Positions 8,194 through 32,518 of a stretch of DNA of 44,321 nucleotides are shown one piece after another. The notes beneath the pieces were generated by a model. The model saw only the letters and a program-made list of their open reading frames with translations, was not told where the DNA came from and did not search any database. The stretch comes from a virus. Positions within the stretch are counted from its first letter, which is position 1. Each line of letters begins with the position of its first letter. A program made the translations under genes and the position numbers. The stretch lies in the UHGV virus genome UHGV-0387474, one strand, 5' to 3'.

Positions 8194-8453
8194 TTGACTC
8201 CTTTCGTGGATATGGTTTTTATATAGCAAATAGCAATTTAGCAAAAACCAATGCAAAGGTGACTTTAAACGGTGTCAAGAACATTAATGGGTTTACAGCC
8301 GTATATTCCGACCGAACCGACCGGGCATTCCAGCTATATTATGATAACGGTGAGATTGCGTCAATCGCATTTAACAACACCGGTATCTGGTATGATTTTT
8401 ATGACGGTCAAAAATGGAAACAGGTTTGGAAGTTTAATAAGCCATCATAATAA

Positions 8454-9020
8454 TCATTTTGTGCTGAAGGCATATAGGTTCGTAAGGTTTGGAACTTGAC
8501 TGTTATAACCAATAAATCGTACGGTATCACCTTTACGCACAGAAAACCATATAGGCATTGACGAATTGACTGTGACATCATTATTGACCCAAAAAATATT
8601 TATCCCATTTATAAGTACATTACAACCATGAGATGAGCTGTTAAAACCAATGGAACCACAAACTATACAATCCTCTGTAGCTGCCCAACTTGTACCGTTA
8701 GCAAACCCATCTTTAATTTTTTTGCTGGTGTCTATGTATGGTAAATTGCTATTTGCAGTAGCAATATCATCCGTATTTTTTGTGATTGCTTGCTGCATCG
8801 AATAGACCAGCGAAGATGACGGAACTGTGGTTTGTGAATTTGTTTGAACGGTTGAAATTAATGCTTTTAGTGTATCAATTATTTCATTAGCTTTTTCAAC
8901 AGTTTCTTCCAGTTTATTTTCTGTTTTATTAAGATGTTCAGCATCAATATCCGGTTCAGAATTATTTACATAATTAGTTGGATTATAGTTGTCCATTTTT
9001 TCTAAATCATTTATTGCCAT
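8454..9020 (-). CDS. Putative tail fibre/receptor-binding protein (188 aa)
   Basis: Coiled-coil N-terminus, beta-rich C-terminus; position at distal end of tail module. Confidence 0.45.
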   Translation of the reverse strand: MAINDLEKMDNYNPTNYVNNSEPDIDAEHLNKTENKLEETVEKANEIIDTLKALISTVQTNSQTTVPSSSLVYSMQQAITKNTDDIATANSNLPYIDTSKKIKDGFANGTSWAATEDCIVCGSIGFNSSSHGCNVLINGINIFWVNNDVTVNSSMPIWFSVRKGDTVRFIGYNSQVPNLTNLYAFSTK

Positions 9021-9029
9021 GCTCTCCTC

Positions 9030-9965
9030 CTATATGCTGCATTTTAATTCCCTTAATGTCATATTGACAACTGATGTACTTGCTGTAGTGCGCATAAAAA
9101 GTGATATATATATAAATCGTGTTCCAGTAATATTGGATACATCAAAACTATTCGTTTTTAAATTGCCTGATGTATTTGGTATTTCTCTCCTCCAATAATC
9201 TCCTAGTCCATCATTATAATCCTTTCCAGAGCCACTAGAATCTCTCATATATATATAATCACTAACATATCCAGTAGCCAGCACCATTTCACAACCACCA
9301 GATGCATTGGCGAGGGAATATTTTAACGTTATTCGATTGATATTATCAAAATTGAGAGGAACATTAAATACAATTGCTGTTGTTACATAATCTGTGCTAA
9401 GGGGATTCTCAAGATGAATGTTATCCCGCCCAAATGTCACGTCCCCTTTGTAGTACGCTCCTCCTTTGCGCCCAAAGGAAGGAAACGAGCTTATTGATTG
9501 TCCTGGAGCAAACACACCATTGTAATATGGCGTATATGGGTCGTCATTTTCATATCCTTCGTAAGTTCCTACAATAGTTGTATCTCCTACCCTAATGACT
9601 ACATTCTTTTTTATATTTGATGCAATAAGATTCGGTAGTCTTTCAACAAAAACATCGCCTGACATATATTTACCAGCTGTATCTACTGTTTGCAAATCCG
9701 CGCTTGGAACAACGTACTGATTACCTAGTGTAGGTATATTTTGTGTTACTGTACTACCAGCTTCATAAAACCCTTCTCCTAAAGATAACGTCTGATTTAA
9801 TTGTAGTTCATGCTTTTCAGGTTGTATAATCGGCATTGTTCCAATTTGTTCATCATCGCTTCCACGACCTAAAAATATTTTTCCTGCCTTTACGCTCGAT
9901 TGAAGGGCAGTTAAATCACTTGTATCTGCATTAGCTCCATTCTTTTTAATTATGCAATCAGCCAT
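9030..9965 (-). CDS. Tail fibre-like protein, long paralogue (311 aa)
   Basis: N-terminal ~130 aa paralogous to 9968..10372 (MADCI.../GTMP/IPTLGNQYV.PS/KYMSGDVF). Confidence 0.5.
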   Translation of the reverse strand: MADCIIKKNGANADTSDLTALQSSVKAGKIFLGRGSDDEQIGTMPIIQPEKHELQLNQTLSLGEGFYEAGSTVTQNIPTLGNQYVVPSADLQTVDTAGKYMSGDVFVERLPNLIASNIKKNVVIRVGDTTIVGTYEGYENDDPYTPYYNGVFAPGQSISSFPSFGRKGGAYYKGDVTFGRDNIHLENPLSTDYVTTAIVFNVPLNFDNINRITLKYSLANASGGCEMVLATGYVSDYIYMRDSSGSGKDYNDGLGDYWRREIPNTSGNLKTNSFDVSNITGTRFIYISLFMRTTASTSVVNMTLRELKCSI

Positions 9966-19398: not shown

Positions 19399-20040
19399 CT
19401 ACCACCCATTGCACAACACCTCATTAAACTTTTCTGTAAACGCTCGTACCCTCACGATATTCCCCATGCACTCATCTGGCACATAACCATAAAAGATAAT
19501 CGTGTCCGGGCAAATGCGCCGTACCATTTCCTTGTAGCCTATCAGAAACAACTCTTTCTTTTCTTTGCTGTTCATCACGCCTAAAGACGATACCGCCACA
19601 ACACCACCCTGTGGCTCTCCGTCAAAGCACCATTCAAAGCTGTCGGGCGTACTCCATGAAATCGTGGGAATAACTTGTATCCCTGCCTCTTGCAGATATG
19701 CGCCTACCCAATGTTTTCTATAATGATTGTATATCTGGATAGCTTTTGGAAAGTCTGTGTAGGTGGAAAAGTCTGGAGACATTACATAACGGAATTTTTG
19801 TAACATGGGTATGTATCGGTCAACATCCGTCCATAACCTATTGAATTGGTAATCATCAATGAAGAAATGTACACCTTTCTTTTCAGTCTCTTTACAAGTC
19901 TTGGCATAGTTGAAACCAATCCATTCACAGCCTTTCTCGTAGGTTACTGGTTCTATCTGCGGTATTCCGTATTTTCCCACGCCGTCAAATATCTGGCGCT
20001 CCAGATTTTCATAATTTCTGCGGTTTCGGTAGTTACTCAT
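19399..20040 (-). CDS. DUF4417-like protein (213 aa), moron within structural module
   Basis: ...FFIDDYQFNRLWTDVDRYIPMLQKF..SPDFSTYTDFPKAIQIYNHYRKHWVGAYLQEAGIQVIPTISW... recalled as DUF4417 signature; 4-nt overlap with holin gene. Confidence 0.5.
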   Translation of the reverse strand: MSNYRNRRNYENLERQIFDGVGKYGIPQIEPVTYEKGCEWIGFNYAKTCKETEKKGVHFFIDDYQFNRLWTDVDRYIPMLQKFRYVMSPDFSTYTDFPKAIQIYNHYRKHWVGAYLQEAGIQVIPTISWSTPDSFEWCFDGEPQGGVVAVSSLGVMNSKEKKELFLIGYKEMVRRICPDTIIFYGYVPDECMGNIVRVRAFTEKFNEVLCNGW

Positions 20041-20300
20041 TTCTTAGCCTGCTTATACATCTGGTTAACTCCCGTAGCCGTAAGGCCAGACATAGCTCCA
20101 ACTGCTACGGCCGTGATGTAGTCCGATGCCGGGAAGTCTGGTATAGTTCCCATACCAAGCGCGCCAAGAACACCCCCCACAACAGCCATAATAACCGGAA
20201 TCCATTCGTCCGGTATTTTCTTTGCAGCCTTGCATCCAAGACCAACCACATAGCTCAGAGCCACAATAGCTACACATGTTCCCAATGTTGTAATGTCCAT
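20037..20300 (-). CDS. Holin (Phage_holin_4_1/phiLC3-SPP1-type, 3 TM)
   Basis: MDITTLGTCVAIVALSYVVGLGCKAAKKIPDEWIPVIMAVVGGVLGALGMGTIPDFPASDYITAVAVGAMSGLTATGVNQMYKQAKK. Confidence 0.75.
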   Translation of the reverse strand: MDITTLGTCVAIVALSYVVGLGCKAAKKIPDEWIPVIMAVVGGVLGALGMGTIPDFPASDYITAVAVGAMSGLTATGVNQMYKQAKK

Positions 20301-21167: not shown

Positions 21168-22340
21168 TTAAGAGTGAGACGTTATATCGTCATTTCCAGA
21201 TTTCAACGCCTTATAGGTATTGTCGCACTCAACTACTGTGATATGATTCCCGGTCGTTGCCTTGATATCAGATTTACCGTCCCACGCTGTCCACGTCTTT
21301 ACATTCTGCCCATATTTCACTTCTGGAGCGGAATCAGCTGCCACTTTGTACTTGTACATATGTCCGGTTTCGAGGGAAGGTTCAATGGTTAATTTTGTGT
21401 TTCCTGATGTGCTTCCGGCCGAAGAAGTTACCGTCAGTGTTCCAAGAACGGGATTATCAGTAATATCAACAACCGCGATTCCGTCAATATATTCTGCAAA
21501 CAAGGTAAGTCCCATTATTGCAAATGCTTCGGAAACAGCGGTATTGTAATTACCCTGGGTATGGAATCCGATAAGGTTTGTCTCTCCGTCCCCAGTAGTA
21601 TATACCAGACCAGCCCGTGAAAAATCGCTTTCATTTGGGTCAACATAGTACATTACAATGTTTTCCACTGGTGTAGCTATTACTTTTCCACTTTCGATTT
21701 CAGAATCAGATAGCAGAAAGATTGTATTGAATCCCATGAAATCCTTAAGATACTGGAAACCAAACTGATTCTGCACAGTGATTTCAGCGGCACCCAGGTA
21801 CTGATATACATCCAGAATATTCACAAATCCAACCACCCCCGTAACATTACGGTGCATCTGTTTGAATTTGTTTTCTACCATTCCTTTTGCCATAGCAAGG
21901 GCCATCTGGAATGTAGTTTCCGTTCCAGTAAGTGTGCCTGTGTTCAGATATGTATAGAATCGCCCTGTTACATTCGACTGAAGCTGAAACAAAAATTCAT
22001 CGTCTGTCATTTGCACAGCATTTTCATATCCGTGGTCTTTGATTGCCTCGATGGAAACGGCTTTCGCATATTTTTCGATAGTCATTTCTGCGTATTCCTT
22101 TTCCTTAACTACGAATTTGCTGTAAGGGATGTCCTCTCCTTCTCCTACTTTTCCGTTTTCCAGCGTTCCCTCGGCGTACTTGCTTTTCAGCGTAGCGCCG
22201 GGTTGCTTTTTAATCGGGCGCATAATGCCAAGAATATCCCGCAGGTGCTGCCAGTTTCTTTCAAACCGGGTAACAAAATCCAATTCCCGAGCCGTTACAT
22301 GAATATCTCCTGTTGTAATCAATTTAGCTTTCGCTGACAT
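21168..22340 (-). CDS. Major capsid protein (390 aa)
   Basis: Directly downstream of scaffold gene, size, strong RBS. Confidence 0.7.
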   Translation of the reverse strand: MSAKAKLITTGDIHVTARELDFVTRFERNWQHLRDILGIMRPIKKQPGATLKSKYAEGTLENGKVGEGEDIPYSKFVVKEKEYAEMTIEKYAKAVSIEAIKDHGYENAVQMTDDEFLFQLQSNVTGRFYTYLNTGTLTGTETTFQMALAMAKGMVENKFKQMHRNVTGVVGFVNILDVYQYLGAAEITVQNQFGFQYLKDFMGFNTIFLLSDSEIESGKVIATPVENIVMYYVDPNESDFSRAGLVYTTGDGETNLIGFHTQGNYNTAVSEAFAIMGLTLFAEYIDGIAVVDITDNPVLGTLTVTSSAGSTSGNTKLTIEPSLETGHMYKYKVAADSAPEVKYGQNVKTWTAWDGKSDIKATTGNHITVVECDNTYKALKSGNDDITSHS

Positions 22341-22342
22341 TT

Positions 22343-22963
22343 TTACTCTCCTTTACCAAATAAATGAATGTTCGCAGCAATAGCGGACTGCCGCTCGGAG
22401 GCATCCTTAATCCCCATAATCTGGTCTTTCGTTATTCCTCCGCTCTGATTCTGCCTCTGGAAAGGCTGTGTAAACCGCGCTGCATTCTGCTGTGCTTTTT
22501 GCTGTTTCTCATCAATAAACGCCGAAGCATCTTTCTCTTTCATCTGAGAAATAAGGTCATTTAAGCCCAATATTTTCCCATCTTTCAATTTCAATCCGGC
22601 CTCTTTCACTTCTGCCATGATTGCCCGTTTTGCTGCCTCACTGGAAAATTTAATTCCTTCAAATTCTGTTTTTAGTGCGTCCGCAAAATCACGCTCATAA
22701 ATCTGTTCCTGGGCTTTTTTTTCGGCTTCTGTAGCCTTCTGTTTCCAGTCAGACAACTCTTTCTGCATCGTCTTCAGGTCAACCCCTTCAAAGCCTTTCA
22801 GCGTTGTTTCTGCTGCTTCTGCTTTTCCTTTCCAGGTATCCCGGTCCGCGCTCAGATTGTCGTTTTCTTTCTGCAACTTTTTGAGGTCTTTCCCATTTTC
22901 AGCCATGACAAAAGATATCTGTTCCTCTGTCAATCCCTGTGCTTTTAATTCTTCGGTTTTCAT
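22343..22963 (-). CDS. Scaffolding protein (GP20-like)
   Basis: Acidic, coiled-coil, MKTEELKAQGLTEEQISFVMAENGKDLKKLQKENDNL...; precedes capsid gene. Confidence 0.7.
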   Translation of the reverse strand: MKTEELKAQGLTEEQISFVMAENGKDLKKLQKENDNLSADRDTWKGKAEAAETTLKGFEGVDLKTMQKELSDWKQKATEAEKKAQEQIYERDFADALKTEFEGIKFSSEAAKRAIMAEVKEAGLKLKDGKILGLNDLISQMKEKDASAFIDEKQQKAQQNAARFTQPFQRQNQSGGITKDQIMGIKDASERQSAIAANIHLFGKGE

Positions 22964-23272
22964 TGATGATTCTCCTTTTCCGTTATTAGGTTATTTGTAG
23001 GTGTGTAACCGTCCACCAACGGTTGCCATTTTGTAGGACTTGGCGTGTCCAAAAACGCACATGCCGGAAATTACATCCGCTTTTCAACCTCCAGGCTGTT
23101 CACGCTATGCGTTAGAACCTGTTTCTTTTAAGGACATGTGCTATAGGAGGGAGGTCAAATATAAGAAAAAGCCAAACAAACTTTTACCATGTTTTCACCT
23201 TTTCTGTGTATTCCTATTCCCATTTTACCGTATTAGCGAAAAAAAATCGTCCCCACATTTTAATATTTCCTC

Positions 23273-23301
23273 TTGACTTTCCACGCATTGCGTGGTATTA
23301 T
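23273..23301 (+). promoter_or_regulatory. SigmaA promoter TTGACT-17-TATTAT with perfect palindrome CCACGCATTGCGTGG (23281..23295) in the spacer
   Basis: Read directly; drives plus-strand islet inside the minus-strand late operon. Confidence 0.6.
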
Positions 23302-23342
23302 TTATACATAAGATAAAAAACGGAGGAATAAAGGAGGACGTT

Positions 23343-23759
23343 ATGAACAAAATTAAAGAATACCGCATAAAAGCACGTATGACACAATCTGATTTATCTG
23401 CTTATCTGGAAATACCGACCAGGACTATTGAGGACTGGGAAACCGAGAAACGGAATCCAGCTCCTTGGGCGGAAGAATTAATTATTAGGCAGTTAGAGGA
23501 GCTTATCCATCCGTGCCTCATGAAACGATTTCTGGACAAGTGTTCCCATATCGCCTATGATAGACTTCTTGGAGAAACTGAAAATATATTTACTGATTCA
23601 AGGGATTTTTCGCACGATGAATATTATAAAATCGTACATGAAGAAATGAAAAAGATGGGAGTCGAGGATAGCGATTACGATTACTGCCCAAAAAGCATCG
23701 ACCATAAATATTTGGAGAATGTACAAGCTGGGCGGGAAATACATGAAACCATATTATAG
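23343..23759 (+). CDS. XRE-family HTH regulator with ~80-aa C-terminal domain
   Basis: AAAGGAGGA RBS; MNKIKEYRIKARMTQSDLSAYLEIPTRTIEDWETEKRNP... Confidence 0.6.
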   Translation: MNKIKEYRIKARMTQSDLSAYLEIPTRTIEDWETEKRNPAPWAEELIIRQLEELIHPCLMKRFLDKCSHIAYDRLLGETENIFTDSRDFSHDEYYKIVHEEMKKMGVEDSDYDYCPKSIDHKYLENVQAGREIHETIL

Positions 23760-23772
23760 GAGGAATATCAAT

Positions 23773-24063
23773 ATGAAAACTTTTAAAGGATACATAAATT
23801 ATGGATGTTTAGCTGCTGAGAAACGCCCTTTGTTTACTGCGGGAAATCCTCACCCAACAGCAATAGTCAGCGAGGCGGTAGAGTATAAAGTACCAGGAGG
23901 ATGGGGCTGCAATGAAACAGAAACTGGCATTGTATTGACAGCTCCGTGGGGTTGGACTTATACACCGAACGAGCTGCTGCATGGGAAAGAATCCCCCTAT
24001 TTATGCGTAATCAATAATGAAGGAAAAGAAATCCATATAATGTTAGATTGGAATCATATTTAA
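23773..24063 (+). CDS. Hypothetical protein (96 aa)
   Basis: GGAGG RBS; MKTFKGYINYGCLAAEKRPLFTAGNPHPTAIVSEAVEYKVPGGWGCNE... Confidence 0.45.
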   Translation: MKTFKGYINYGCLAAEKRPLFTAGNPHPTAIVSEAVEYKVPGGWGCNETETGIVLTAPWGWTYTPNELLHGKESPYLCVINNEGKEIHIMLDWNHI

Positions 24064-24233
24064 ATGAGAGAAAAATAATGAATAAAAATACCGAACTTAG
24101 AAGGGAAGCTTTAAAAATCATCGAGGGTAGAAAAGAAAAAGATATACATGACGCTGATTTGCTCGATAGCGTCTGCCGGTATACTACCGTTTTGGTTGAT
24201 GGAGTAAATTACAGGATTTACATGGTATTTTGA
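24048..24233 (+). CDS. Hypothetical small protein; possibly frameshifted (a 40-codon ORF continues in another frame to 24353)
   Basis: ORF then out-of-frame continuation ...PEGLDDLGNVDYDHAYRVVDVTKEWEYTDLGDFLGSAE. Confidence 0.3.
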   Translation: MESYLNERKIMNKNTELRREALKIIEGRKEKDIHDADLLDSVCRYTTVLVDGVNYRIYMVF

Positions 24234-24365
24234 TTTGCCAGAAGGTTTGGACGATTTAGGAAATGTGGATTATGACCACGCATATCGTGTGGTTGATGTC
24301 ACAAAAGAATGGGAATATACTGATTTAGGAGATTTTTTAGGAAGCGCCGAATAAAAAAGAAAAAT

Positions 24366-24401
24366 ACCGCCAACTCGTAATGAGAAGGCGATATTTTTTT
24401 T
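24366..24401. terminator. Weak candidate bidirectional terminator (A-tract, short GC stem, T8)
   Basis: aaaataccgcc...ggcgatattttttttg. Confidence 0.3.
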
Positions 24402-24592
24402 GCTTTGTAGCTAAAAAGAAATAAACTAATATTTTAATCCACACCACTCCATTTGGGGAGCAGCGACCAGTATAGGTCCCATATACCGATACCTTATGGA
24501 ATGATAATATATCTTTTGTCCTTATTTGTCAAGATACTCTTCGGTTTTATACATTTTTAAAAGGCGGCAGGACTTTTCCCACCGCCAATTTA

Positions 24593-25132
24593 TTACATCA
24601 TATTACGAAGCTTTTCAATATACCTTTTCATGGTTTCTCTTTCTTCCCGGCAGTCGGCATCTTTGGACATTTCGCCTAATTCTTCTGTCAGTTCGTCCAT
24701 ATGTTCTTCCAAAGCTGCAAGCATACGCCGCTTGCAATCTTCATCTTTCCCTCCGCTTCTGTAGCTCTGCTTCTGATTCATGTAGTCGTCATAGGCCGGA
24801 CCGTTCGCACGGCTGTAGTGTCCTCTAACGTAATGTTTTCCACGTGTGCCACGATAGGAGCTGTCATTATCATAGTCCTGCGACATTCCATCAGCACGGC
24901 TATAACGTCCCATGCTGTCGCGTTTGCGGCGCGCTTCGCTGTATTCTCCGCCATCCATTTCGTCCATTACCTGATTGTAGTACTCTTTTTTGCACTTCCA
25001 GTACTCCACATTCTCCATGTCTTTCCACATGTCTATCAGTTTGTATGCGGTTTCAAGGTTGCTAGTGTTCAGGCCCTTTTCCGCAATCTTATCCAGTTCT
25101 TCATGGATATTCTGCATCATCTTATAGCTCAT
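24593..25132 (-). CDS. Highly charged helical protein with central R/Y/S/G-rich low-complexity segment (179 aa)
   Basis: ...SYRGTRGKHYVRGHYSRANGPAYDDYMNQKQSYRSGG...; accessory island. Confidence 0.5.
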   Translation of the reverse strand: MSYKMMQNIHEELDKIAEKGLNTSNLETAYKLIDMWKDMENVEYWKCKKEYYNQVMDEMDGGEYSEARRKRDSMGRYSRADGMSQDYDNDSSYRGTRGKHYVRGHYSRANGPAYDDYMNQKQSYRSGGKDEDCKRRMLAALEEHMDELTEELGEMSKDADCREERETMKRYIEKLRNMM

Positions 25133-25144
25133 AGCCTTACCCCC

Positions 25145-25543
25145 TTAACCTATTCTGCTAACAACAAGGTTAGCGTCTGATACTGTCGCTGCTGTGGCTC
25201 CAACGTTTTTTACTGATAGGGTAGCACAACATGGTTTGCACACCCTTACTTCTACAGTTGCCGCTCCATTGATTGTTGCGCCGGCGGCAACTGTGTTCTG
25301 GATTCTTGCACCGGGAATGCCTTCGCCGTCCTGCTGTACTTCAAAAATAACGTCACCTGCTGCGGCTGCGGAAAAGTTTCCGTTAAAGCCTACACGGTAC
25401 AGACCAGGAAGTAAAACCACTCTACCAGAAAGTGGATTATGCCTTATATTTGGGCAATTACAGGAATATACCCGGTTTGCTGCAAACAGTACACTTGCAT
25501 TGACTTCAACAGTCTGTGTACCAGCAGTTACAAAATCTGCCAT
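25145..25543 (-). CDS. Beta-rich protein resembling BclA C-terminal (C1q/TNF-like) domain (132 aa)
   Basis: Ala/Val/Gly-rich beta-strand pattern; resemblance by eye only. Confidence 0.4.
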   Translation of the reverse strand: MADFVTAGTQTVEVNASVLFAANRVYSCNCPNIRHNPLSGRVVLLPGLYRVGFNGNFSAAAAGDVIFEVQQDGEGIPGARIQNTVAAGATINGAATVEVRVCKPCCATLSVKNVGATAATVSDANLVVSRIG

Positions 25544-25608
25544 AATAAATCCTCCTTATATACACAGAAGGGCAAGCCTGTGCCTACCCCTCCATGTGTG
25601 TAATACTA

Positions 25609-25845
25609 CTATTCAGTAGACATGTCCTTTTCGGACAAGATACGCAATATACGGTTATTTTGGTCGATAATCTTTTCCATGTACTCCTTATTCTCCTGTT
25701 GCAATGCTTCCATAATATCATTATTTGACACATCACCAACAATCAAAAGCAAATTTATCATTTGCAATGCAGTTGCATACAGAGCAAGATTATCGTAAAA
25801 CTGTTCGTTTCTCATTAGCACCCGCATCCAGTATTGCATCCACAA
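25609..25845 (-). CDS. Hypothetical small protein (start uncertain)
   Basis: Overlaps upstream ORF by 31 nt. Confidence 0.3.
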   Translation of the reverse strand: MWMQYWMRVLMRNEQFYDNLALYATALQMINLLLIVGDVSNNDIMEALQQENKEYMEKIIDQNNRILRILSEKDMSTE

Positions 25846-26525
25846 CCACAGTTAGAGGCATATGGATATGGCGCTGGAACCGTATAAGCCGGTACAGGCT
25901 GCGGCTGACGAAGCTGTGCAACGATTGAGTTACCAACTGCATCAATAAATCCGTTCTGGGCAGTCTGGCTTGCCTGGAATCTAAGGGTTTGATTCTCCGC
26001 CTGTAAGGTAGAAATCTTATCCTGAGTTAAGAAGTCAAGAATAGCTCTTGTATTGCTGTTGTTGTTGTCCAGAATATCCCTAGTTGCGGTCTGAATGGTG
26101 TTTCTGGTATCGCATGACTGTGTAGCCAGGTTATAATTTACACCATCAATTGCGCGCTGTGTCTGGCAGCAGCAATCCTGGAGCTGATATCCCATCTGGC
26201 ATAAGCTGCGGTCAACACCGTTGAATCCGCTGGTGATAGTGTTGTTCAGCGCGTATGTGCTGTCACAGATACCCTGTTGGATACCCCTAATTCCGTTTTC
26301 TATACCGTTCAAAGCAAAACCCTCATTGATATCTGCTCTGGTAGCAAGACCCTGGAGTCCCGCGCCATTTGCACCGTTGCCGCCGAAGCCATTGCCCCAG
26401 CCTCCCCCGGCGAACAGGAAGAGAACGATAATCCAAATCCAATCTCCCCACATACCGTCACCATTTCTGTTATTTCCGTTTCCTGTAGCGGCTGCAATGT
26501 CCGCTAAAGAGTAACCACTTTCCAT
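25815..26525 (-). CDS. Membrane-anchored Gly/Asn-rich, Cys-rich protein (236 aa) ending NCGCGCNTGCGC
   Basis: TM helix WIWIIVLFLFAGGGW, GNGFGGNGANGAG, QDCCCQTQ, C-terminal Cys cluster. Confidence 0.5.
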   Translation of the reverse strand: MESGYSLADIAAATGNGNNRNGDGMWGDWIWIIVLFLFAGGGWGNGFGGNGANGAGLQGLATRADINEGFALNGIENGIRGIQQGICDSTYALNNTITSGFNGVDRSLCQMGYQLQDCCCQTQRAIDGVNYNLATQSCDTRNTIQTATRDILDNNNSNTRAILDFLTQDKISTLQAENQTLRFQASQTAQNGFIDAVGNSIVAQLRQPQPVPAYTVPAPYPYASNCGCGCNTGCGC

Positions 26526-26578
26526 AAATATTTACTCCTTTAAATTTATTTACAAAATCATGCGCATTGATTTATGTA

Positions 26579-26827
26579 CTATTTTTTCATGCCTCCAAGC
26601 ATCTGCTGAAACTGCTGGGCCATCTGCTGGGCTTGGTCTAACTGTTGCTGAGTTATCTGACCAGACTGGAGCATCTTCTGCACTTCTTCCTGAGGATTCC
26701 CTTTGAAGTTGTTCTTAAATTCCATAAACTTCTGAATCATCTGCATTGGGTTATTTCCCCCACTCATTCCAGGCATCATGCCACCCATTGGTGAACCGCC
26801 GCCCAACATGCTAAATAATGGATTCAT
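26579..26827 (-). CDS. Met/Gly/Gln-rich low-complexity protein (82 aa)
   Basis: MNPLFSMLGGGSPMGGMMPGMSGGNNPMQ...QQQLDQAQQMAQQFQQMLGGMKK. Confidence 0.5.
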   Translation of the reverse strand: MNPLFSMLGGGSPMGGMMPGMSGGNNPMQMIQKFMEFKNNFKGNPQEEVQKMLQSGQITQQQLDQAQQMAQQFQQMLGGMKK

Positions 26828-26830
26828 ATA

Positions 26831-27301
26831 TTATTTCCCCTTTCCACTTGGAGCTGTGCTGGATTCTAAAAGGCCGTACAATTCATCATATTTTGCCTTT
26901 AAATCCTGATACTCGTTTCTGGTAACATACTTTTCATCCAGATTTTCAGCCGGTACAGATTCTTTTTTCTGACCATTGACAATCTCTTTATATTCAAAAG
27001 TGCGAAGCGTTGGCATTCCTGCCGCATCGGTTGTCTTAATATAAAAATACTCATTTTCGCTATCCATCAGCAATATAGATGTGCTGGGCGCTACTAAATA
27101 TGACTTTGCCCCGGCCTCTCCCTGTACCCATAAGATACCCTGATTCGTCTGAGGAACCTGCGGAACTTGCGTCTGCTGTTGCATCTGATATGGTGCCTGT
27201 AGCTGCTGCAATCGGTCCATAGGTGGTTGCATCTGCGGCTGATATGGGTATGCATTTGGATATGTATTCAAATAGTTTGGATTGATAAATGGTTGCGGCA
27301 T
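26831..27301 (-). CDS. Protein with Q/P/Y-rich N-terminus and small beta C-domain (156 aa)
   Basis: MPQPFINPNYLNTYPNAYPYQPQMQPP...; GerQ-like architecture by eye only. Confidence 0.45.
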   Translation of the reverse strand: MPQPFINPNYLNTYPNAYPYQPQMQPPMDRLQQLQAPYQMQQQTQVPQVPQTNQGILWVQGEAGAKSYLVAPSTSILLMDSENEYFYIKTTDAAGMPTLRTFEYKEIVNGQKKESVPAENLDEKYVTRNEYQDLKAKYDELYGLLESSTAPSGKGK

Positions 27302-27393
27302 TATATCCCCTCCGTTCTTTTATAATCCAATTATCCCATAAAAAATAAGCCTCTGACAGTTCGTCAAAGACTTATAAAAGTATCATGCAAGTA

Positions 27394-27594
27394 TCAGCAT
27401 ACTCTAATTATTTTATTGTTGACTTTTCGGCTCAATCTCTTGGCTGTGGATACACTTACATTCATTAGTTCAGCGCAATATTCCAAAGTATAATTTTTAG
27501 CCCGGTACTCAAACAGCGCCCGTTCTTCATCCGTAAAGTTACAATATGTACGAAAATAATTTAGTTCTGGCACTGTAAAGTCATATACCTTCAA
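27394..27594 (-). CDS. Sigma-70 region 4-like HTH mini-protein (66 aa)
   Basis: FTDEERALFEYRAKNYTLEYCAELMNVSVSTAKRLSRKVNNKI matches sigma r4.2 pattern. Confidence 0.5.
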   Translation of the reverse strand: MKVYDFTVPELNYFRTYCNFTDEERALFEYRAKNYTLEYCAELMNVSVSTAKRLSRKVNNKIIRVC

Positions 27595-27605
27595 AGCAAC
27601 GCTCC

Positions 27606-27899
27606 TTAAATACCCTCTGACAAATGCTTTATCATAGCTTCTTTGGTTTTTTTTAAACCCTCTATGTTGTTACCGGTTATACGATTATCAATTAATGCTA
27701 TCATTCCCTGGCATAAAAGAGATTGCATATCTCTTATTTCTTGGATAGATTTATAATCCTTTTCCACATTTATTTCTAATTTATCCACTCTGTTTTTTAG
27801 CTTAAATGCCGGGTGAAACAATTTATATATTACGGTTCCTGCGCCTCCAAGAGTAATAAGCCAACCACATACAACCATAATAGAGTTTAATGTTTCCAT
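27606..27899 (-). CDS. BhlA/UviB-like holin-type protein (N-terminal TM + coiled coil, 97 aa)
   Basis: METLNSIMVVCGWLITLGGAGTVIYKLF then charged helical tail. Confidence 0.5.
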   Translation of the reverse strand: METLNSIMVVCGWLITLGGAGTVIYKLFHPAFKLKNRVDKLEINVEKDYKSIQEIRDMQSLLCQGMIALIDNRITGNNIEGLKKTKEAMIKHLSEGI

Positions 27900-27902
27900 A
27901 AG

Positions 27903-28286
27903 TTATCGCCTTTCCCAGTAGTATATTGGTATTTCTTGACCGCTGTCCCATGTGTCCCAGTAAAATCCATCCACAACCGTTACTACATGACCATCAAGCC
28001 CAAGAACAAATACTCCGTTTTGGTGGTCTGCCGAAAATTCTTCCACGGTATAATCTTCTGGATATTCGTCTGGTATAATGTTTCTCCGAAACCCGTTGCG
28101 CCTGAGATATGTCCCCCACACGCTGTTAGCTGACGGCATATCTGATTTCTCGCACGCCACCACCATAACACCAGCAAAGACGGTTTCCCAATCCTGTCCG
28201 GTTGCTTTGCAGATTGCACGTATGGCACAGTCGCCTACACGCTGATTACGGACTGGGTTAGGGTTATATGGTTTCCATCTATTCAA
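27903..28286 (-). CDS. Papain-superfamily cysteine peptidase-like protein (C39/CHAP/NlpC-P60-like), 127 aa
   Basis: NQRVGDCAIRAIC (Gln-x5-Cys) ... GLDGHVVTVVDGFYWD (His, Asp) in the canonical order and spacing. Confidence 0.45.
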   Translation of the reverse strand: MNRWKPYNPNPVRNQRVGDCAIRAICKATGQDWETVFAGVMVVACEKSDMPSANSVWGTYLRRNGFRRNIIPDEYPEDYTVEEFSADHQNGVFVLGLDGHVVTVVDGFYWDTWDSGQEIPIYYWERR

Positions 28287-29506
28287 ATTAATTCCCCTTT
28301 CGCATTTTGATACCGCCTTGCCGCCCCTCTGGCCTTTGCGGCCTGTTCACGGCTCCAGCGGGCAATCTGTAACCGTTCCTGCTGGGTGCGTAAGTCATTC
28401 GCTTTGCAAAATTCGTTGTATGCTTTATTCTTCCGCTGTAACAGATACGACTTTCGGTCAAGGTCAAGCTGCATTTCAAATTTAACTGATTCGTCCTTGC
28501 ATTTATCCACGGCCTCTTGCATCCCAATGACTTCGCGTTTGGTCTTTCTGATGCGCCGTTCAAGCGTTCTCTGTCGCTTCTCCAGCTGCTCAACCTTGTA
28601 ATTGTCTGCGGTTTGGATGTCTTTGTATGGATTGTTTACCCCATCACCGCTACCGAATGAGTGACGGCAGTTCCATCCACATAACCCTTCACCTGTTCCG
28701 TATCCAGTATGGGAAAATGGAGGAAAGCTCTTATCCTTTCCAGTCCTGCTGTAAAACTGCCCTTGCCACCATAAATGATTGCCCGGATTCTGTACCCCAT
28801 CCCCGGTTCTGGCCCCGATGTGCGCCGACACCAGTATGATATCCCAGTCCATTTCTTCCATACGCTTAATAGAGATATCGCCTGTAGCCTGGGCTACTCC
28901 AGTACGTACTGCACGCGCCGTAGCAGTTTCTATGGTGTCTTTATGGCCCGAAGGATAGTGTACTATCACTCCGCCCGATACCACATTATTAACTGCCTCT
29001 TTGACAGCCTGTGTGTACGATACAGCCCCAGAAGATACAAGGTGGTATGCATTATCACATTCGTTTATAAAAAGCCTTTGTGCAGCTTCTGCTGTGGTCC
29101 TAGTATAGTTTTCCCACTCTCCCATTGTTGCATCCATGTTTCGTTCCATCAGTCGGATAAGCTGCGGAGATTGAGTAAGAGGAATTGGAGATAAACCAGC
29201 AGCTTCATATATTTTATGGTCATATTCCAGGGCCTTGATTCCAGCTTCTTCCATTGCGGCCTTGATTTCTTTTTCCTGTCGATTAGTGATTTTGGATAAC
29301 TCTGCCGTTATGTCCTTCAGCAGATATCCTGCATCCCGCAATATCTGTATTCGCCATCGGTCAGAGGAGGTGAGCAGGTAATCATCGCCGCGGCCTATAC
29401 GTATCATCATGCGGTCTATTATCTGACGGATAATGTATGTGTGAAGCTGTGAGGCTATTTCTTCGCTTCCTTCTGCGATTCTTGCAAGGTAATCAGGGCT
29501 TAACAT
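28283..29506 (-). CDS. Minor head protein, MuF/SPP1 gp7 family
   Basis: 407 aa directly after portal; GWNCRHS motif region; basic coiled-coil C-terminus. Confidence 0.7.
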   Translation of the reverse strand: MLSPDYLARIAEGSEEIASQLHTYIIRQIIDRMMIRIGRGDDYLLTSSDRWRIQILRDAGYLLKDITAELSKITNRQEKEIKAAMEEAGIKALEYDHKIYEAAGLSPIPLTQSPQLIRLMERNMDATMGEWENYTRTTAEAAQRLFINECDNAYHLVSSGAVSYTQAVKEAVNNVVSGGVIVHYPSGHKDTIETATARAVRTGVAQATGDISIKRMEEMDWDIILVSAHIGARTGDGVQNPGNHLWWQGQFYSRTGKDKSFPPFSHTGYGTGEGLCGWNCRHSFGSGDGVNNPYKDIQTADNYKVEQLEKRQRTLERRIRKTKREVIGMQEAVDKCKDESVKFEMQLDLDRKSYLLQRKNKAYNEFCKANDLRTQQERLQIARWSREQAAKARGAARRYQNAKGELI

Positions 29507-29612: not shown

Positions 29613-31040
29613 TTATTCCTCCTCAAACATCCTCGGCCCATCCTTCGGTTGTGCTTCCTGTACCATAGCCTTTGCATCTTCCTCGGATAACCCTTCAAAC
29701 TTCTGGAAATACATCCAGGGTGGTACCTTCCCCTGCACAACATACTGCCACCATCTTGCTCTGTCCTCTTCACGATTGTATGTAATGTCCCCAAAATCAT
29801 ATGTGATTTCGTAGTTGCCGGCGGGTGCCAGTCCGTACAGGTCAGCATATACATTGAGCGCATATATTGCGCCATCAAGGCAACTTTCCAGTTTGTCGCG
29901 CACATCCTTAATTAACTGGATAGTGCGGCGGTCATCAGCTTCTACCTGTGTTGCTGTGACCATACCTGTTTTTTCGTCAAGTACAAAGTACCCGTTGGAG
30001 TATCCGCACTTGAATCCAATAAATGAAAGAAGATTATTAATTCCAGTAAGTCTTATATCAGTATTTAACGATGGATTAATCTCATGGTAAAATTCTCCAT
30101 TACTATTTCCAAATACATTTCTTACATAATGGGGTAATTTAACTTTATTTACTCCTGGGCGTTTTAAATTTCTTCCATCACCAAGCATTAATTGGTCATC
30201 AATTAATATAATTTTCTCACTGTCAAATATTTCACCCACATTCCGACTATATGCCACATCAAGGTCCTTTAATTCTTCTATGGCCTCGGCAAACATTGGC
30301 AATCCCAAAGGTGATGAGATATCCAAATTGTTAGCCTGTGGAGTGCGGAGTACACCAAACATGGGGCCGTCTATTTTATCATTGTTAGCCTTGAGTATAG
30401 GCGGTGTATCTGGAAGTAAGTCAGACCACTTAGTCCTGTTTAATGCTATCGGGTCCCCCACACTTTTTGCAGACTGAGACACATAAGCTCTATTGGATAT
30501 GTAATATGGGTAATAGGTGTTTTCCCCCTCCTTGACCTCGACAAACCGATGATACTCAAACCGGGTATAATACTTATCATTTTCGCTGTAGCTATCCTTG
30601 AATACAATCCCATAGATACCTTCATTGTCACAATCCGTAATAATAAAGTCCATCGGTGTGAATATGTCCAGTCCCTTTCCATTGGGCTTAAGGATGATTG
30701 TGCCGTAGGCCATACCATACTCTACCCAGTGGCGAATCTGGAAATATATCTTGTCAATCTGCTCCTGGATCCACGCCGCCCGCGCACTCCCATCAATCTG
30801 TATTCCGATTGCCAGGGTAGCAAGTCGGGCCGTCTCTGAGCATATGGCCTTTGCAAAATTGATTGTCTTAACGTTATCGTCAGCATTCACCCAATAGGGA
30901 GTACCCCGGTAGATATTGGCGCACTCTGTAATCTTGCTTTCCATCTCCGGGGATACCACCGATTCAACATTGAAATCTTCTTCTGCCTGTCGCTTGAATA
31001 TCATTCCTATCACCTTTTTAGCCCATGTTATTAGTCCCAT
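29613..31040 (-). CDS. Portal protein
   Basis: 475 aa immediately after terminase large subunit. Confidence 0.8.
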   Translation of the reverse strand: MGLITWAKKVIGMIFKRQAEEDFNVESVVSPEMESKITECANIYRGTPYWVNADDNVKTINFAKAICSETARLATLAIGIQIDGSARAAWIQEQIDKIYFQIRHWVEYGMAYGTIILKPNGKGLDIFTPMDFIITDCDNEGIYGIVFKDSYSENDKYYTRFEYHRFVEVKEGENTYYPYYISNRAYVSQSAKSVGDPIALNRTKWSDLLPDTPPILKANNDKIDGPMFGVLRTPQANNLDISSPLGLPMFAEAIEELKDLDVAYSRNVGEIFDSEKIILIDDQLMLGDGRNLKRPGVNKVKLPHYVRNVFGNSNGEFYHEINPSLNTDIRLTGINNLLSFIGFKCGYSNGYFVLDEKTGMVTATQVEADDRRTIQLIKDVRDKLESCLDGAIYALNVYADLYGLAPAGNYEITYDFGDITYNREEDRARWWQYVVQGKVPPWMYFQKFEGLSEEDAKAMVQEAQPKDGPRMFEEE

Positions 31041-31049
31041 TTAGTCACC

Positions 31050-31259
31050 TTATGCCAAGAAATACCCATTTTCCTTTGCCGTATTCCATTCTGTTTCCCT
31101 AAATACCAATTCCGTTCTGTCTTTCTGTCCATAACAATCATACTCCAGAAAAACTTTCAGTAGTTTTTCCTTAGATGGTTTTCCGAACTTTTTTTCATAT
31201 TCATCTGTGATATCTTCAATTTTATAGACAGACAAAATAAAATGTTCTAATACATTCAT
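31050..31259 (-). CDS. Hypothetical protein (69 aa) between terminase and portal
   Basis: ORF with tight spacing. Confidence 0.4.
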   Translation of the reverse strand: MNVLEHFILSVYKIEDITDEYEKKFGKPSKEKLLKVFLEYDCYGQKDRTELVFRETEWNTAKENGYFLA

Positions 31260-32518
31260 TATGCGCTGTTCCCCCTTCTCATGGATAATGGGCTTGTGGC
31301 ATAGCGGAGTGCATCTATCCAGTGGTCATTTCCATCTGGGTAATCCGATATCACCTCACCGTTGCTGTCAACCTCATGCTCATATTCTATGATTTCTTTG
31401 TATGCCTGCGGTGTGCGTGCCGGGTCTATAACGATTGTACGGCACTGCAACCACTCAAAGGTGTATTTCCTGCTTCCTGGTGTTACAATGGCTCTGCGTG
31501 CCGGTAAACCAGCGTCACGGAAGTCTATAATGCTTTCTTCTTCATCCACACCACAATAGATTGTATAATCATCGTACCCAGCCGCCCGTATATCCTCTGC
31601 CATCTTACTATTACGGATTTTACAGCCGCCCATTTCATCAAGCAACACAACCAATTCTTTGTTTGGTATGTAAGCGGCCCGGATAAATGCTTTGGGGTCC
31701 GGGAACCAGCCCCAGTCTTGCCCCTGATATATGCTTTGGTATTTCTGGATTTCCTCGTCTGTGATTGTCCGTACATCCAGCATATCAAATATATTTGTAC
31801 CAAGTCCAACCGGCAAGCCTAAATACTCATGATTATATGCCCGCTCATTGGTGGCTTTAAGATGTTCTGCGCGTTCAATAAACATTTCTCCCATCCATTC
31901 AACCGGTACAGAACGGTAATCGCTTTTATGCCTATACGCGCTATCGTCTGGAGTATTTACATACTGATTAGCCCAGTTGCTTTGGCTGATGGGTGGGTTG
32001 AAGGATTTAAATACAACAAACTTGCTTCCACCACGCAACACTGACTGTTCAACAGTCCGTATTTCCTCCGGTCCTGCAAATTCATCCAATTCCTCAAACC
32101 ACAAATATTTGAAGTATCCCTTACTAGCTTTAATTGACTTTGTTTTCTTGGCTTTATCAAGTCCACGGAATATTATCTTTTGCCCTGTCGACTTATAAAC
32201 GAATCTGTATGGGCTTGTACGGGATTCCCACAAATCCGTAACGCCTAGCGCGTCTATGGCCCACTGTATCTGTTCAAATACTGATTCTCCGATTGTCACC
32301 GCATATTTACGAAACACTACCGCATTGGCCTCTGGGTCATCCATCATACCCAGTACAATCTCCACAGATATGAAAGAGGACTTCGTGGAACCTCGTCCGC
32401 CGTACAGGTCATAATATGTATGTTTACCTTCTAGGATATCCCAGTGAACATCGTAGAAAGAAGGGGCGATTACATCAGTCAGATTTATTGTTGTCTGGTC
32501 TTGGTATGTTGTTGACAA
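31259..32518 (-). CDS. terL: Terminase large subunit (PBSX/Terminase_3 type)
   Basis: Walker A YGGRGSTKS, 419 aa, overlaps TerS. Confidence 0.85.
   Translation of the reverse strand: MSTTYQDQTTINLTDVIAPSFYDVHWDILEGKHTYYDLYGGRGSTKSSFISVEIVLGMMDDPEANAVVFRKYAVTIGESVFEQIQWAIDALGVTDLWESRTSPYRFVYKSTGQKIIFRGLDKAKKTKSIKASKGYFKYLWFEELDEFAGPEEIRTVEQSVLRGGSKFVVFKSFNPPISQSNWANQYVNTPDDSAYRHKSDYRSVPVEWMGEMFIERAEHLKATNERAYNHEYLGLPVGLGTNIFDMLDVRTITDEEIQKYQSIYQGQDWGWFPDPKAFIRAAYIPNKELVVLLDEMGGCKIRNSKMAEDIRAAGYDDYTIYCGVDEEESIIDFRDAGLPARRAIVTPGSRKYTFEWLQCRTIVIDPARTPQAYKEIIEYEHEVDSNGEVISDYPDGNDHWIDALRYATSPLSMRRGNSA

Follow-up and report, generated by a model that had tools for sequence, protein, structure and literature searches.

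What is a run of compositionally unusual genes doing between the MuF and scaffold genes of a phage? In the virus genome UHGV-0387474, of which we analyzed a stretch of 44,321 nucleotides (hereafter the window), nine co-directional open reading frames on the minus strand occupy this gap at positions 24593-28286. From the MuF side they encode proteins of 127, 97, 66, 156, 82, 236, about 68-78, 132 and 179 amino acids, designated below o127, o97, and so on. The preliminary description counted ten reading frames; those it named all lie where it placed them on the minus strand, independent gene callers predict identical genes on public contigs, and their residue percentages and Cys motifs agree with the compositional classes it described. 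The interval towards the scaffold gene also holds three opposite-strand reading frames (23292-24233) and two Rfam RNA motifs, outside 24593-28286. Base composition of the island is ordinary for the window (GC 0.39-0.44, against 0.36-0.49 in neighbouring stretches). Since five of the reading frames match PHROG families (E 3.7e-12 to 2.5e-71) and about 80 genomes preserve the gene order, these are not chance reading frames. Pfam and NCBIfam searches returned an accepted family match for none of the island proteins, and no signal peptide was seen at their N-termini.

What fills the gap is one instance of an apparently self-regulated cassette of seven to nine genes that gut Clostridia phages carry at varying genome positions. 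Its core encodes, in order, a Q/P/Y protein, an M/Q protein of about 80 amino acids, a protein with a hydrophobic anchor, coiled coil and Cys-rich tail, a beta-rich knob and an R/G/S/Y-rich helical protein. Together with a Cys-His-Asp hydrolase-like protein and a putative sigma-region-4-type helix-turn-helix (HTH) protein, this core recurs in about 80 species-level genomes. Taking o236 as the signature protein, we found 82 loci, in which its partners are o156 (74 loci), o179 (55), o127 (52), o132 (49), o66 (44) and o82 (41); MuF is present in only 12. The cassette uses two main sites, the MuF-scaffold gap and a position 3' of the endolysin beside the integrase. Its three upstream genes include MuF (seven proteins) or endolysin domains (Amidase_2 in six, GH25 in two, CHAP in two, M23 in one and M15_3 in one), and its three downstream genes the scaffold (10) or an integrase (10). 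In both contexts it is co-oriented with the late genes and lies at the operon end. The MuF-scaffold placement is that of the window and about a dozen relatives; one locus, L056, carries the cassette 3' of the major capsid protein, and many, locus L002 and Butyrivibrio virus Ceridwen among them, carry it directly 3' of the endolysin. Related phages do hold the island between MuF and scaffold, yet the cassette is not confined to the head module, and the idea of an insertion peculiar to that gap is not supported: the endolysin/integrase site is used by at least as many phages.

The clostridial host proposed earlier agrees with the closest loci, which come from a Dorea sp. metagenome-assembled genome (MAG) and Enterocloster hominis. 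Binning has also placed the cassette in MAGs of Faecalibacterium, Subdoligranulum, Agathobacter, Christensenellaceae and 'Bacilli', and many of the hosts are spore-forming Clostridia. The complete cassette is present in Ceridwen, for which the lytic cycle is the sole growth mode observed (PMC7372960).

A conserved control region separates the core from the genes before it. Upstream lies o66 (27394..27594, minus strand), a putative sigma-70 region-4-type HTH protein. Over profile positions 110-155 it matches phrog_1190 'RNA polymerase sigma factor' (E 6.6e-7); its score against Pfam Sigma70_r4_2, 16 bits at E 0.009, stays under the family cut-off of 25.7 bits. It adjoins the cassette in 44 of the 82 loci. 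Its stop codon overlaps the first of two tandem direct repeats, TGATACTT, spaced 11 bp apart (27376..27396, minus strand), a candidate operator that is kept in related loci and has no further tandem copies elsewhere in the window. Ceridwen has a different 11-bp-phased repeat at the equivalent site, TTGCACGTAAA/TTGCACATAAT; between Ceridwen and the other loci, the repeat sequence downstream of o66 varies together with the HTH variant. There follows a 14-pair hairpin with a T-run (27345..27375, minus strand), detected by a terminator scan as intrinsic-terminator-like. Across nine loci, 6 of 10 pairs are preserved through two-sided changes, and the depositors of Ceridwen annotated a terminator at the equivalent place. 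A promoter scan then identified an extended -10 element, TATGgGATAAT (27330..27340, minus strand), whose weak -35, CTGTCA, falls within the hairpin; 10 loci share its consensus TRTGnGAWAAT (TRTGn plus GAWAAT). The 3' boundary of the cassette is marked, immediately past the stop codon of o179, by a terminator-like hairpin read from the sequence, GGCGG...CCGCC followed by TTTT (24559..24586, minus strand), which falls under the scan threshold of five T residues.

These elements suggest how the cassette may be controlled. Genes from MuF through o66 overlap or are spaced by 3-11 nt, so that joint transcription of o66 and the late genes is probable; its position suggests late lytic rather than repressed-prophage expression. 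We propose that o66, expressed from the late transcript that precedes the core, is an activator dedicated to the cassette promoter; it would probably bind the two phased repeats and thereby switch on an activator-dependent extended -10 promoter. As this promoter lies just behind an intrinsic terminator, o156, o82, o236, o132 and o179 would form a separate, very late unit, ending at its own terminator-like hairpin.

The signature protein o236 (25815..26525, minus strand; phrog_16490, E 5e-62) belongs to a family of at least 7986 clusters at 90% identity, or 2656 clusters at 50% identity (E <= 1e-3). It is rich in Gly (14%) and Asn (11%) and contains 11 Cys, including the QDCCCQ motif and the C-terminal NCGCGCNTGCGC noted previously. 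In the homologue alignment, a short N-terminal tail is accompanied by a hydrophobic segment of 12-14 residues with G/W/F-rich flanks (here WIWIIVLFLFAG; maximum KD19 1.46 at residue 30). A long helical stalk of heptad type, in which a CCC is invariant, leads to a 'PVPAYxVP' motif rich in P and Y and to a CGC cluster at the C-terminus. An AF2 model places helices at 73-98 and 105-205, and its oligomeric state is a guess given a low-confidence pLDDT of only 50.7. The number of GFNGVQQ heptad repeats differs among homologues; such variation and the long predicted helices would fit a fibrous stalk.

The knob candidate o132 (25145..25543, minus strand; A 15%, V 14%, 5 Cys) folds in a monomer model as a compact 10-strand jelly-roll beta-sandwich of the C1q/TNF superfamily. 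The resemblance to a BclA C-terminal or C1q-type domain, first seen by eye, is thus borne out at the level of fold: the closest structural matches are F-BclA, BclA and ExsFA, C1q/TNF-like proteins of the spore surface in the Bacillus cereus group, as is ExsF/BxpB. Unlike these, o132 is phage-encoded, has a conserved PCGCC motif specific to its family, and is a jelly-roll domain alone: its 132 residues, like those of homologues of 130-157 amino acids, include no collagen-like GXX stalk, and there is no exosporium leader. It matches no Pfam family at E <= 0.1, hence not BclA_C (PF18573), and a profile of 39 homologues found no BclA chain in the PDB. The slot is swappable. The window and L004, a close relative, share 85% DNA identity as far as 25654, none across o132, and are again similar from o179 onwards; the knob gene is exchanged as a discrete unit, a mosaic pattern typical for binding modules. 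Changes in knob gene type are not matched by covariation in the invariant P/Y motif of o236, and a pairing of stalk and head is therefore without support from coevolution.

The other core proteins are largely of low complexity. In o156 (26831..27301, minus strand; phrog_21718, E 2.9e-48; Q 12%, P 10%, Y 8%), a Y/Q/P-rich N-terminal region precedes a small conserved beta-rich domain (WVQGEAGAKSYLVAP...FYIKT...LRTFEY) and a 'YVTREEF' helix; it is found nearly always two genes upstream of o236. The slot between them holds o82 (26579..26827, minus strand; phrog_22984, E 3.6e-22), an M/G/Q-rich protein of about 70-82 amino acids with a helical C-terminal half (Q 20%, M 16%, G 15%), in 38 loci, and a second family of about 77 amino acids in 22. 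The last gene, o179 (24593..25132, minus strand; phrog_28802, E 2.5e-71), encodes helical terminal segments around an R/G/S/Y-rich low-complexity core (RRDSMGRYSRDG, GYS) and carries SSYRGTRGKHYVRGHYSR and KQSYRSGG; eight loci hold instead a low-complexity N-terminus joined to DUF7841. Two genes occupy lineage-variable positions. o97 (27606..27899, minus strand), with an N-terminal transmembrane segment (maximum KD19 1.85 at residue 6) and a coiled coil, has homologues in only four loci, and small transmembrane proteins stand at the equivalent position in 12 others (fam9), in L002 and in Ceridwen. o78 (25609..25845, minus strand; 68-69 amino acids according to public gene callers) is an insert restricted to the window, L003 and L004, with a weak match to DAM-like-phage2.

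The gene for o127 (27903..28286, minus strand; phrog_3754, E 2.3e-33), whose start overlaps the MuF stop codon, encodes a predicted Cys-His-Asp hydrolase of the papain/NlpC-P60-like type. Residues D19-C20, R23, H100 and D111 are invariant in 35-41 diverse homologues, which include proteins of Bacillus phage Tsamsa, Geobacillus phage GBK2, a Lak phage and Ceridwen, and the catalytic-type residues are conserved in papain-like/NlpC-P60 order. Homologues in Bacillus phages were annotated 'putative peptidase' by depositors; searches of Pfam, NCBIfam and PDB sequences gave no match. Since unrelated phages also carry o127 on its own, it may be no part of the machine encoded by the rest of the cassette.

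Which function could unite these genes? The preliminary description raised the possibility of a module, expressed in lysogens, that would remodel the spore coat, exosporium or cell surface. The structural matches of o132, the Cys-, Q- and Y-rich compositions, the lack of signal peptides, the many spore-forming hosts and a moron-like unit with its own promoter and terminator all accord with it. Coat and exosporium assembly, with a SpoVM-type anchor, Q-rich GerQ cross-linked by Tgl and Cys-rich CotY/ExsY/CdeC, follows a similar logic, in that cytoplasmic Cys/Q/Y-rich proteins without signal peptides are combined with a membrane anchor and a Cys-His-Asp enzyme. In Pfam and NCBIfam, however, the cassette showed no sequence-profile relation to any coat family. 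o156 matches nothing in NCBIfam at E <= 1 and nothing in Pfam at E <= 0.1, hence not the GerQ profiles (NCBIfam TIGR02728 and a Pfam Spore_GerQ model); o179 and o236 match no CotG, CdeC, ExsY-CotY, CsxA or other coat or exosporium family in either database, the likeness being compositional only. Butyrivibrio fibrisolvens, the host of Ceridwen, is not known to form spores. A full cassette in a phage of such a host, observed only in lytic growth, disfavours a role in sporulation or lysogenic conversion, as do the bins from Faecalibacterium, Subdoligranulum, Agathobacter, Christensenellaceae and 'Bacilli' MAGs and an activator gene apparently transcribed with late lytic genes. The cassette is probably not tied to sporulation, and we regard the proposed remodelling of spore or cell surface as highly improbable. 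Scarcely more credible, and if anything less so, are stoichiometric head parts (decoration, cement or extra scaffold) of the SPP1-like head module. The MuF-scaffold placement and the L056 cassette following the capsid gene would suit such parts, and trimeric beta-sandwich proteins are common capsid decorations, but the many cassettes 3' of an endolysin accompany unrelated structural genes, the cassette has its own regulator and terminators, and a close relative swaps the knob gene while its capsid gene region stays similar. Of the earlier suggestion of unusual head decorations, only a weaker form survives, a virion accessory independent of capsid type.

Two further readings place the products at the membrane. 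The Q/P/Y-, M/Q- and RG/SY-rich proteins might phase-separate late in infection on the o236 anchor, concentrating or organizing virion assembly or host factors in a condensate. In three of the five core proteins, low-complexity sequence of a prion-like or RGG/SY-like kind predominates, a feature conserved across families; a hydrophobic anchor is available, a C1q-like trimer could act as a multivalent hub, and all products appear cytoplasmic. This argument is purely compositional, however, and explains neither the Cys clusters nor the swappable knob; the cassette has no NTPase or client-binding domain, and it moves among unrelated virion modules where coevolution with virion genes would be expected. 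We consider a condensate quite unlikely. An accessory to egress, aiding or timing release at the host envelope, has better claims but is still unlikely. Here, o236 would act as a membrane-anchored coiled coil in the manner of i-spanins or fusion proteins, o127 would be a small endopeptidase of peptidoglycan, and the small transmembrane protein would resemble a holin or antiholin. The frequent position directly after the endolysin fits, very late expression is compatible, and Rz/Rz1 come to mind from the combination of a transmembrane segment with a coiled coil, conserved Cys and a Pro-rich tail. In o127, C20, H100 and D111 are presumably spaced like the Cys, His and Asp of Tae4-type NlpC/P60 amidases, and the o236 profile weakly and non-significantly resembles an HA2 fusion peptide plus helix (E 0.3-0.9). 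Nevertheless, the hydrophobic core of o236 is short for a transmembrane helix, the window encodes its holin (20037-20300) and endolysin (6910-7695) away from the island, and the C1q-like protein and three low-complexity proteins are left unexplained. We rejected a spanin identity for o236 in spite of its hydrophobic segment and long helices: the cassette has no lipobox partner, and its single-membrane Clostridia hosts would need no spanin.

Our preferred explanation, which we hold tentatively and at somewhat less than an even chance, is that a very late accessory operon makes a stalk-and-knob structure that is assembled in the cytoplasm and released with the virions. A dedicated regulator and independence of capsid and tail type are unusual for virion parts, and the hydrophobic segment and frequent adjacency to lysis genes suit membrane-directed egress equally well. 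The sole candidate fusion to a capsid-adjacent gene, in L056, is repeated in none of 80 relatives. Related architectures exist in phages: TNF-like distal knobs are found on the Sf6 needle, PRD1 P5 and the tail fibres of cyanophages A4 and A-1(L). In the cassette, by contrast, the knob would be a polypeptide distinct from the stalk, which has Cys clusters and an N-terminus that is hydrophobic and rich in Gly, and the genes lie outside the tail module under their own regulator. The cassette also resembles phage morons, autonomous insertions of promoter, gene and terminator at the ends of operons: it closes late operons on their 3' side, is flanked by a promoter (the extended -10) and terminator-like hairpins (the covarying one and that after o179), and moves between insertion sites in unrelated phages. 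It departs from morons in comprising seven to nine genes and a dedicated activator, in its apparent coupling to late lytic transcription instead of expression from the prophage, and in its retention by a phage for which lytic growth alone has been observed.

In the stalk-and-knob structure that we envisage, o236 would oligomerize into a coiled-coil stalk, anchored through its hydrophobic N-terminus rich in Gly and aromatic residues and bearing a tail rich in Pro, Tyr and Cys. On it, the swappable beta-rich protein, here the C1q-like and presumably trimeric o132, would form a binding head. The Q/P/Y-, M/Q- and R/G/S/Y-rich proteins may serve as linker or matrix partners, and o127 may process or cross-link its partners, or cut the cell wall. 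As signal peptides are absent and several products are Cys-rich, assembly is probably cytoplasmic; Cys is reportedly avoided, in general, in exported proteins of Firmicutes. Lysis would then release the structure, either bound to progeny virions or together with them, and disulfide cross-links could form once it is outside the cell.

The late genes of the window's temperate siphophage-type element lie on the minus strand, among them those for the large terminase (31259-32518), the portal (29613-31040), MuF/minor capsid protein 2 (28283-29506; PF06152, E 2.8e-74), the scaffold (22343-22963) and the major capsid protein (21168-22340). From MuF to position 24593 we count nine co-directional ORFs, labelled here by their length in amino acids: o127 (27903-28286), o97 (27606-27899), o66 (27394-27594), o156 (26831-27301), o82 (26579-26827), o236 (25815-26525), o78 (25609-25845), o132 (25145-25543) and o179 (24593-25132), all on the minus strand. 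The compositions and Cys motifs ascribed to their products in the preliminary description proved correct. Public gene callers predict the same island genes on contigs with an identical o236 protein, and the searched collection has 56 blocks in which that very sequence is indexed.

The cassette is mobile and is not a feature of the head module. A locus scan using one genome per species returned 80 loci, nearly all from gut Clostridia (Lachnospiraceae, Oscillospiraceae, Acutalibacteraceae and Christensenellaceae), with some from 'Bacilli' MAGs; cultured carriers are Enterocloster hominis, Anaerotruncus colihominis and Muriventricola aceti. The arrangement of MuF, island and scaffold seen in the window was found in related phages, as the preliminary description had proposed to check, but the island is not confined to it. 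The flanks are of two main types. The first, shared by the window, Dulem virus 35 and some ten further loci, has MuF upstream and scaffold/capsid genes downstream; in the second, the cassette follows an endolysin and is itself followed by an integrase on the opposite strand. With either type, the cassette occupies the 3' end of a late operon and has the orientation of that operon.

Gene order was established by iterative HMMs on the ORFs of these loci. The core follows a fixed order: o156, an approximately 80-aa protein, o236, an approximately 140-aa beta-rich protein and a low-complexity/helical protein of about 170-240 aa. Optional members precede o156 (a small TM protein, the o66 HTH protein, o127) or close the cassette (o127 in one subgroup, then a helical protein of about 106 aa). 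Among 82 loci with o236, o156 is present in 74, o179 in 55, o127 in 52, o132 in 49, o66 in 44 and o82 in 41; MuF is present in just 12. Three slots have alternative occupants: o82 or a second family of about 77 aa ahead of o236, o132 or a Cys-rich family of about 136 aa as the knob, and o179 or a low-complexity N-terminus joined to DUF7841 in the last position.

Several loci carry additional genes. AgrB-like membrane peptidase genes (PF04647) adjoin the cassette in six loci; several cassette copies have one directly upstream of the o156 homologue (L066 8442-9005; L073 8430-9002; L074 8403-8975; L049 8446-9021; E 2.9e-7 to 8e-5). Since they co-occur with o127, we set them aside as an alternative processing enzyme and consider them probably separate insertions. 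A 274-aa ORF inserted within the cassette of L016 (10879-11703) has an SGGKDS motif and no Pfam match. In L056, one 444-aa ORF (8361-9695) has an o156 homologue fused to a homologue of a post-capsid gene that resembles one in Flavonifractor phage Chenonceau. We discarded this fusion as a Rosetta-stone link to the capsid because it is absent from all 80 IMG/VR relatives, the closest of which match the o156 part alone (residues 317-444).

The core proteins have no match in Pfam, NCBIfam or PADLOC, against which all island proteins were scanned; five island proteins match PHROG families whose function is unassigned. The o236 family comprises at least 7986 clusters at 90% identity and 2656 at 50% identity (E <= 1e-3; 1417 at E <= 1e-10), the latter all stand-alone proteins of about 200-300 aa. 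Among 8000 scored candidates, the o132 profile retrieved 4079 proteins and the o127 profile 6216; a profile search for o127 homologues returned close relatives alone, none annotated. One o236 homologue, P0464 (399 aa), is cut off past the CCC motif, where a region bearing a GDSYSSGG motif takes over. We read that region as SGNH/GDSL-hydrolase-like and the protein as a probable accidental chimera. Megablast of the island region against phage genomes gave no match, and sequence profiles against PDB chains gave nothing significant for o132, o127 (two alignments), o156, o236 or o179; weak matches to VP5 (E 0.02) and HA2 (E 0.3-0.9) were treated as coiled-coil or composition noise. Our literature search found no paper describing the cassette. 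Its parts have relatives at the level of fold or by composition only.

The clearest structural prediction concerns o132. A confident AF2 model built from 50 sequences (pLDDT 85.7, pTM 0.80) is all-beta and scores highest against the F-BclA C-terminal domain (17.3, with 23% identity), followed by BclA (16.7), Ectodysplasin (16.0), Collagen VIII NC1 and ExsFA (14.9 each), C1q and TNF family members (11-15), cyanophage tail-fibre knobs (13), PRD1 P5 (11.3) and the Sf6 needle knob (9.1). Foldseek against viral models places at the top 130-145-aa proteins of uncultured human-gut phages, two of them already auto-named 'BclA protein'. The BclA/C1q likeness first noticed by eye is thus borne out at the level of fold in the AF2 model, but membership of the BclA family is not demonstrable: sequence profiles of o132 (Pfam, PDB chains) do not reach BclA, and the protein has neither a collagen-like stalk nor an exosporium leader. 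For these reasons we describe o132 as a protein with a predicted C1q/TNF fold, most similar in shape to BclA-C and ExsF. Elsewhere this type of fold serves adhesion and receptor binding. Kinship with F-ENA was rejected, the cassette having no DUF4183 subunit and no collagen-like anchor; likewise, four representatives of the alternative Cys-rich knobs, considered as Ena pilins, matched no Pfam family. Between the window and its close Enterocloster hominis relative, the knob gene is exchanged as a discrete unit: DNA identity is 85% up to 25654, disappears across o132 and returns at o179.

The signature protein, o236, is strongly conserved, its alignment showing ATRADINEGFALN, GICDSTYALNN, an invariant CCC, TRAILDFLTQDKI, PVPAYxVP and a terminal CGC. 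Its AF2 model is of low confidence (pLDDT 50.7), with helices predicted at 73-98 and 105-205, and the number of GFNGVQQ heptads varies among homologues; we read it as a putative oligomeric coiled-coil stalk. A hydrophobic core of 12-14 residues with G/W/F-rich flanks is a plausible, not a certain, membrane anchor. The P/Y tail of o236 showed no covariation with the type of knob gene. In o156, a Y/Q/P-rich N-terminus accompanies a small conserved beta-rich domain and a 'YVTREEF' helix, and in o179 a RRDSMGRYSRDG/GYS-type core lies between helical ends. In o127 the D-C, H and D residues never vary, not even among the distant homologues of Bacillus Tsamsa-like phages, Geobacillus GBK2 and Lak phages, and 'putative peptidase' is the name some depositors give the protein; o127 is the only enzyme-like member of the cassette.

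Where o66 directly precedes o156, a regulatory layout is conserved. In the window it consists, on the minus strand, of two direct repeats TGATACTT 11 bp apart (27396-27376), found in tandem nowhere else in the window, a hairpin of 14 pairs with a T-run (27375-27345) and an extended -10 element, TATGgGATAAT (27340-27330), with only a weak -35. Six of ten hairpin pairs retain pairing through two-sided changes, and the depositors of Butyrivibrio virus Ceridwen independently predicted a terminator at the equivalent site. Ceridwen shares the layout with a different repeat, TTGCACGTAAA/TTGCACATAAT, as expected if the neighbouring HTH protein binds the repeats. Because the genes from MuF through o66 overlap or lie 3-11 nt apart, the putative activator o66 is probably expressed from the late transcript. 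We infer that o66 binds the repeats and that expression of the core genes would be delayed, making them a very late unit, which would end at GGCGG...CCGCC-TTTT past o179.

The gap between o179 and the scaffold gene holds a terminator-like hairpin, a strong promoter-like site, three opposite-strand ORFs and two Rfam motifs. A candidate small RNA (24360-24532, minus strand) lies between the cassette and these ORFs: its promoter is near-consensus (TTGACA-17-TATTAT, 24532-24504), a stretch of about 140 nt folds stably (-43.2 kcal/mol, z -4.16), and the hairpin at its end is accompanied by a T-run. Its sole Rfam match is a sub-threshold one to SR6 antitoxin (E 0.05). The three ORFs (23292-24233, plus strand), one encoding a 155-aa XRE-type HTH protein, break up the head module, have their own promoter-like site (TTGACT-17-TATTAT with TG, 23273-23301) and are absent from the close relative L004. 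The Rfam motifs, GP20-b (22987-23050, 42.9 bits) and RAGATH-21 (23056-23142, 81.7 bits), both on the minus strand and above the gathering threshold, lie immediately upstream of the scaffold gene. Elsewhere in the window, a FuFi-1 RNA (RF02986; 1765-1926, plus strand, 135.7 bits) lies a few kb from the integrase gene (5529-6620), and a Hol44-family holin (20037-20300) with a DUF4417 protein (19399-20040), both on the minus strand, sits within the head-tail joining region, some 12 kb from the M15/VanY endolysin (6910-7695). On public cassette-bearing contigs, a capsid protein of the same length as that of the window matches PF18316, the S-layer SbsC C-terminal domain, which suggests that the capsid protein may display an Ig-like domain, placed by eye in its C-terminal extension.

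Could the cassette act on spore or cell-surface assembly in lysogens, as the spore-coat-like compositions had suggested? Ceridwen (MN882553.2) is a cultured phage for which a lytic cycle alone was observed (PMC7372960). It carries the entire cassette immediately after its endolysin: a 64-aa TM protein, a 73-aa HTH protein, homologues of o127, o156, o82, o236, o132 and o179, and, after the last, the helical protein of about 106 aa. A 287-aa ORF ahead of the o179 homologue (L083 7382-8245) matches HTH_17 weakly and by eye resembles an insert of the homing-endonuclease type. The host of Ceridwen, B. fibrisolvens DSM 3071, is not known to form spores. Cassette copies also fall into the bins of Faecalibacterium, Subdoligranulum, Agathobacter and Christensenellaceae MAGs, a weaker point since phage contigs can be mis-binned. 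A function requiring lysogeny or sporulation is therefore unlikely, though conceivable in spore-forming hosts.

Signal peptides are absent from all cassette products, several of which are Cys-rich. As exported proteins of Firmicutes generally avoid Cys, assembly probably takes place in the cytoplasm, with release at lysis. Knobs of the C1q/TNF type commonly form distal binding heads. Together with the discrete exchange of the knob gene and o127 as sole enzyme-like member, this points away from an enzyme system and towards an accessory structure of stalk and knob, in which the low-complexity proteins would be linker or matrix partners. Such a structure may sit on virions, remain at membranes or go free. 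The closest competing explanation is an egress device. This reading would account for the proximity to endolysins and for the joint presence of a small hydrolase with a TM segment and a coiled coil, but leaves the knob and low-complexity proteins unexplained and would have to operate in single-membrane hosts.

It is improbable, in our estimate, that the products form, as the cell dies, a shell or matrix akin to a spore coat, or a condensate tethered to the membrane, by which virions are coated or embedded. Such material would be synthesized in the reducing cytoplasm, released by lysis and then cross-linked by oxygen, so that progeny virions would be protected or made adherent in transit outside the anaerobic gut; if true, the phage would have a kind of 'occlusion' strategy in which the C1q-like binding heads can be exchanged. 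A bacteriocin-like reading, combining the Gly-rich hydrophobic segment, the coiled coil, a swappable receptor head and a small TM 'immunity' protein, was set aside because it has no specific support and ill suits a phage seen only in lytic growth. We place the cassette among accessory operons of the moron type, as one that would encode a fibrous structure bearing a knob, with a real chance that it is something without precedent.

The o236 family, with about 2,650 clusters at 50% identity, is unannotated and present in prophages of many dominant gut Clostridia; given this size and range, the cassette product is probably common in gut phage infection. The cassette brings together a C1q/TNF-type head, an unusual set of low-complexity proteins and a private regulatory switch. 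The cultured pair of Ceridwen and Butyrivibrio fibrisolvens DSM 3071, which has the whole cassette, makes the question directly testable. If the product is a virion accessory, it may affect host range, adhesion to mucus or particles, or how well virions survive away from the host; as an egress device, it would add a new component to lysis in single-membrane bacteria.
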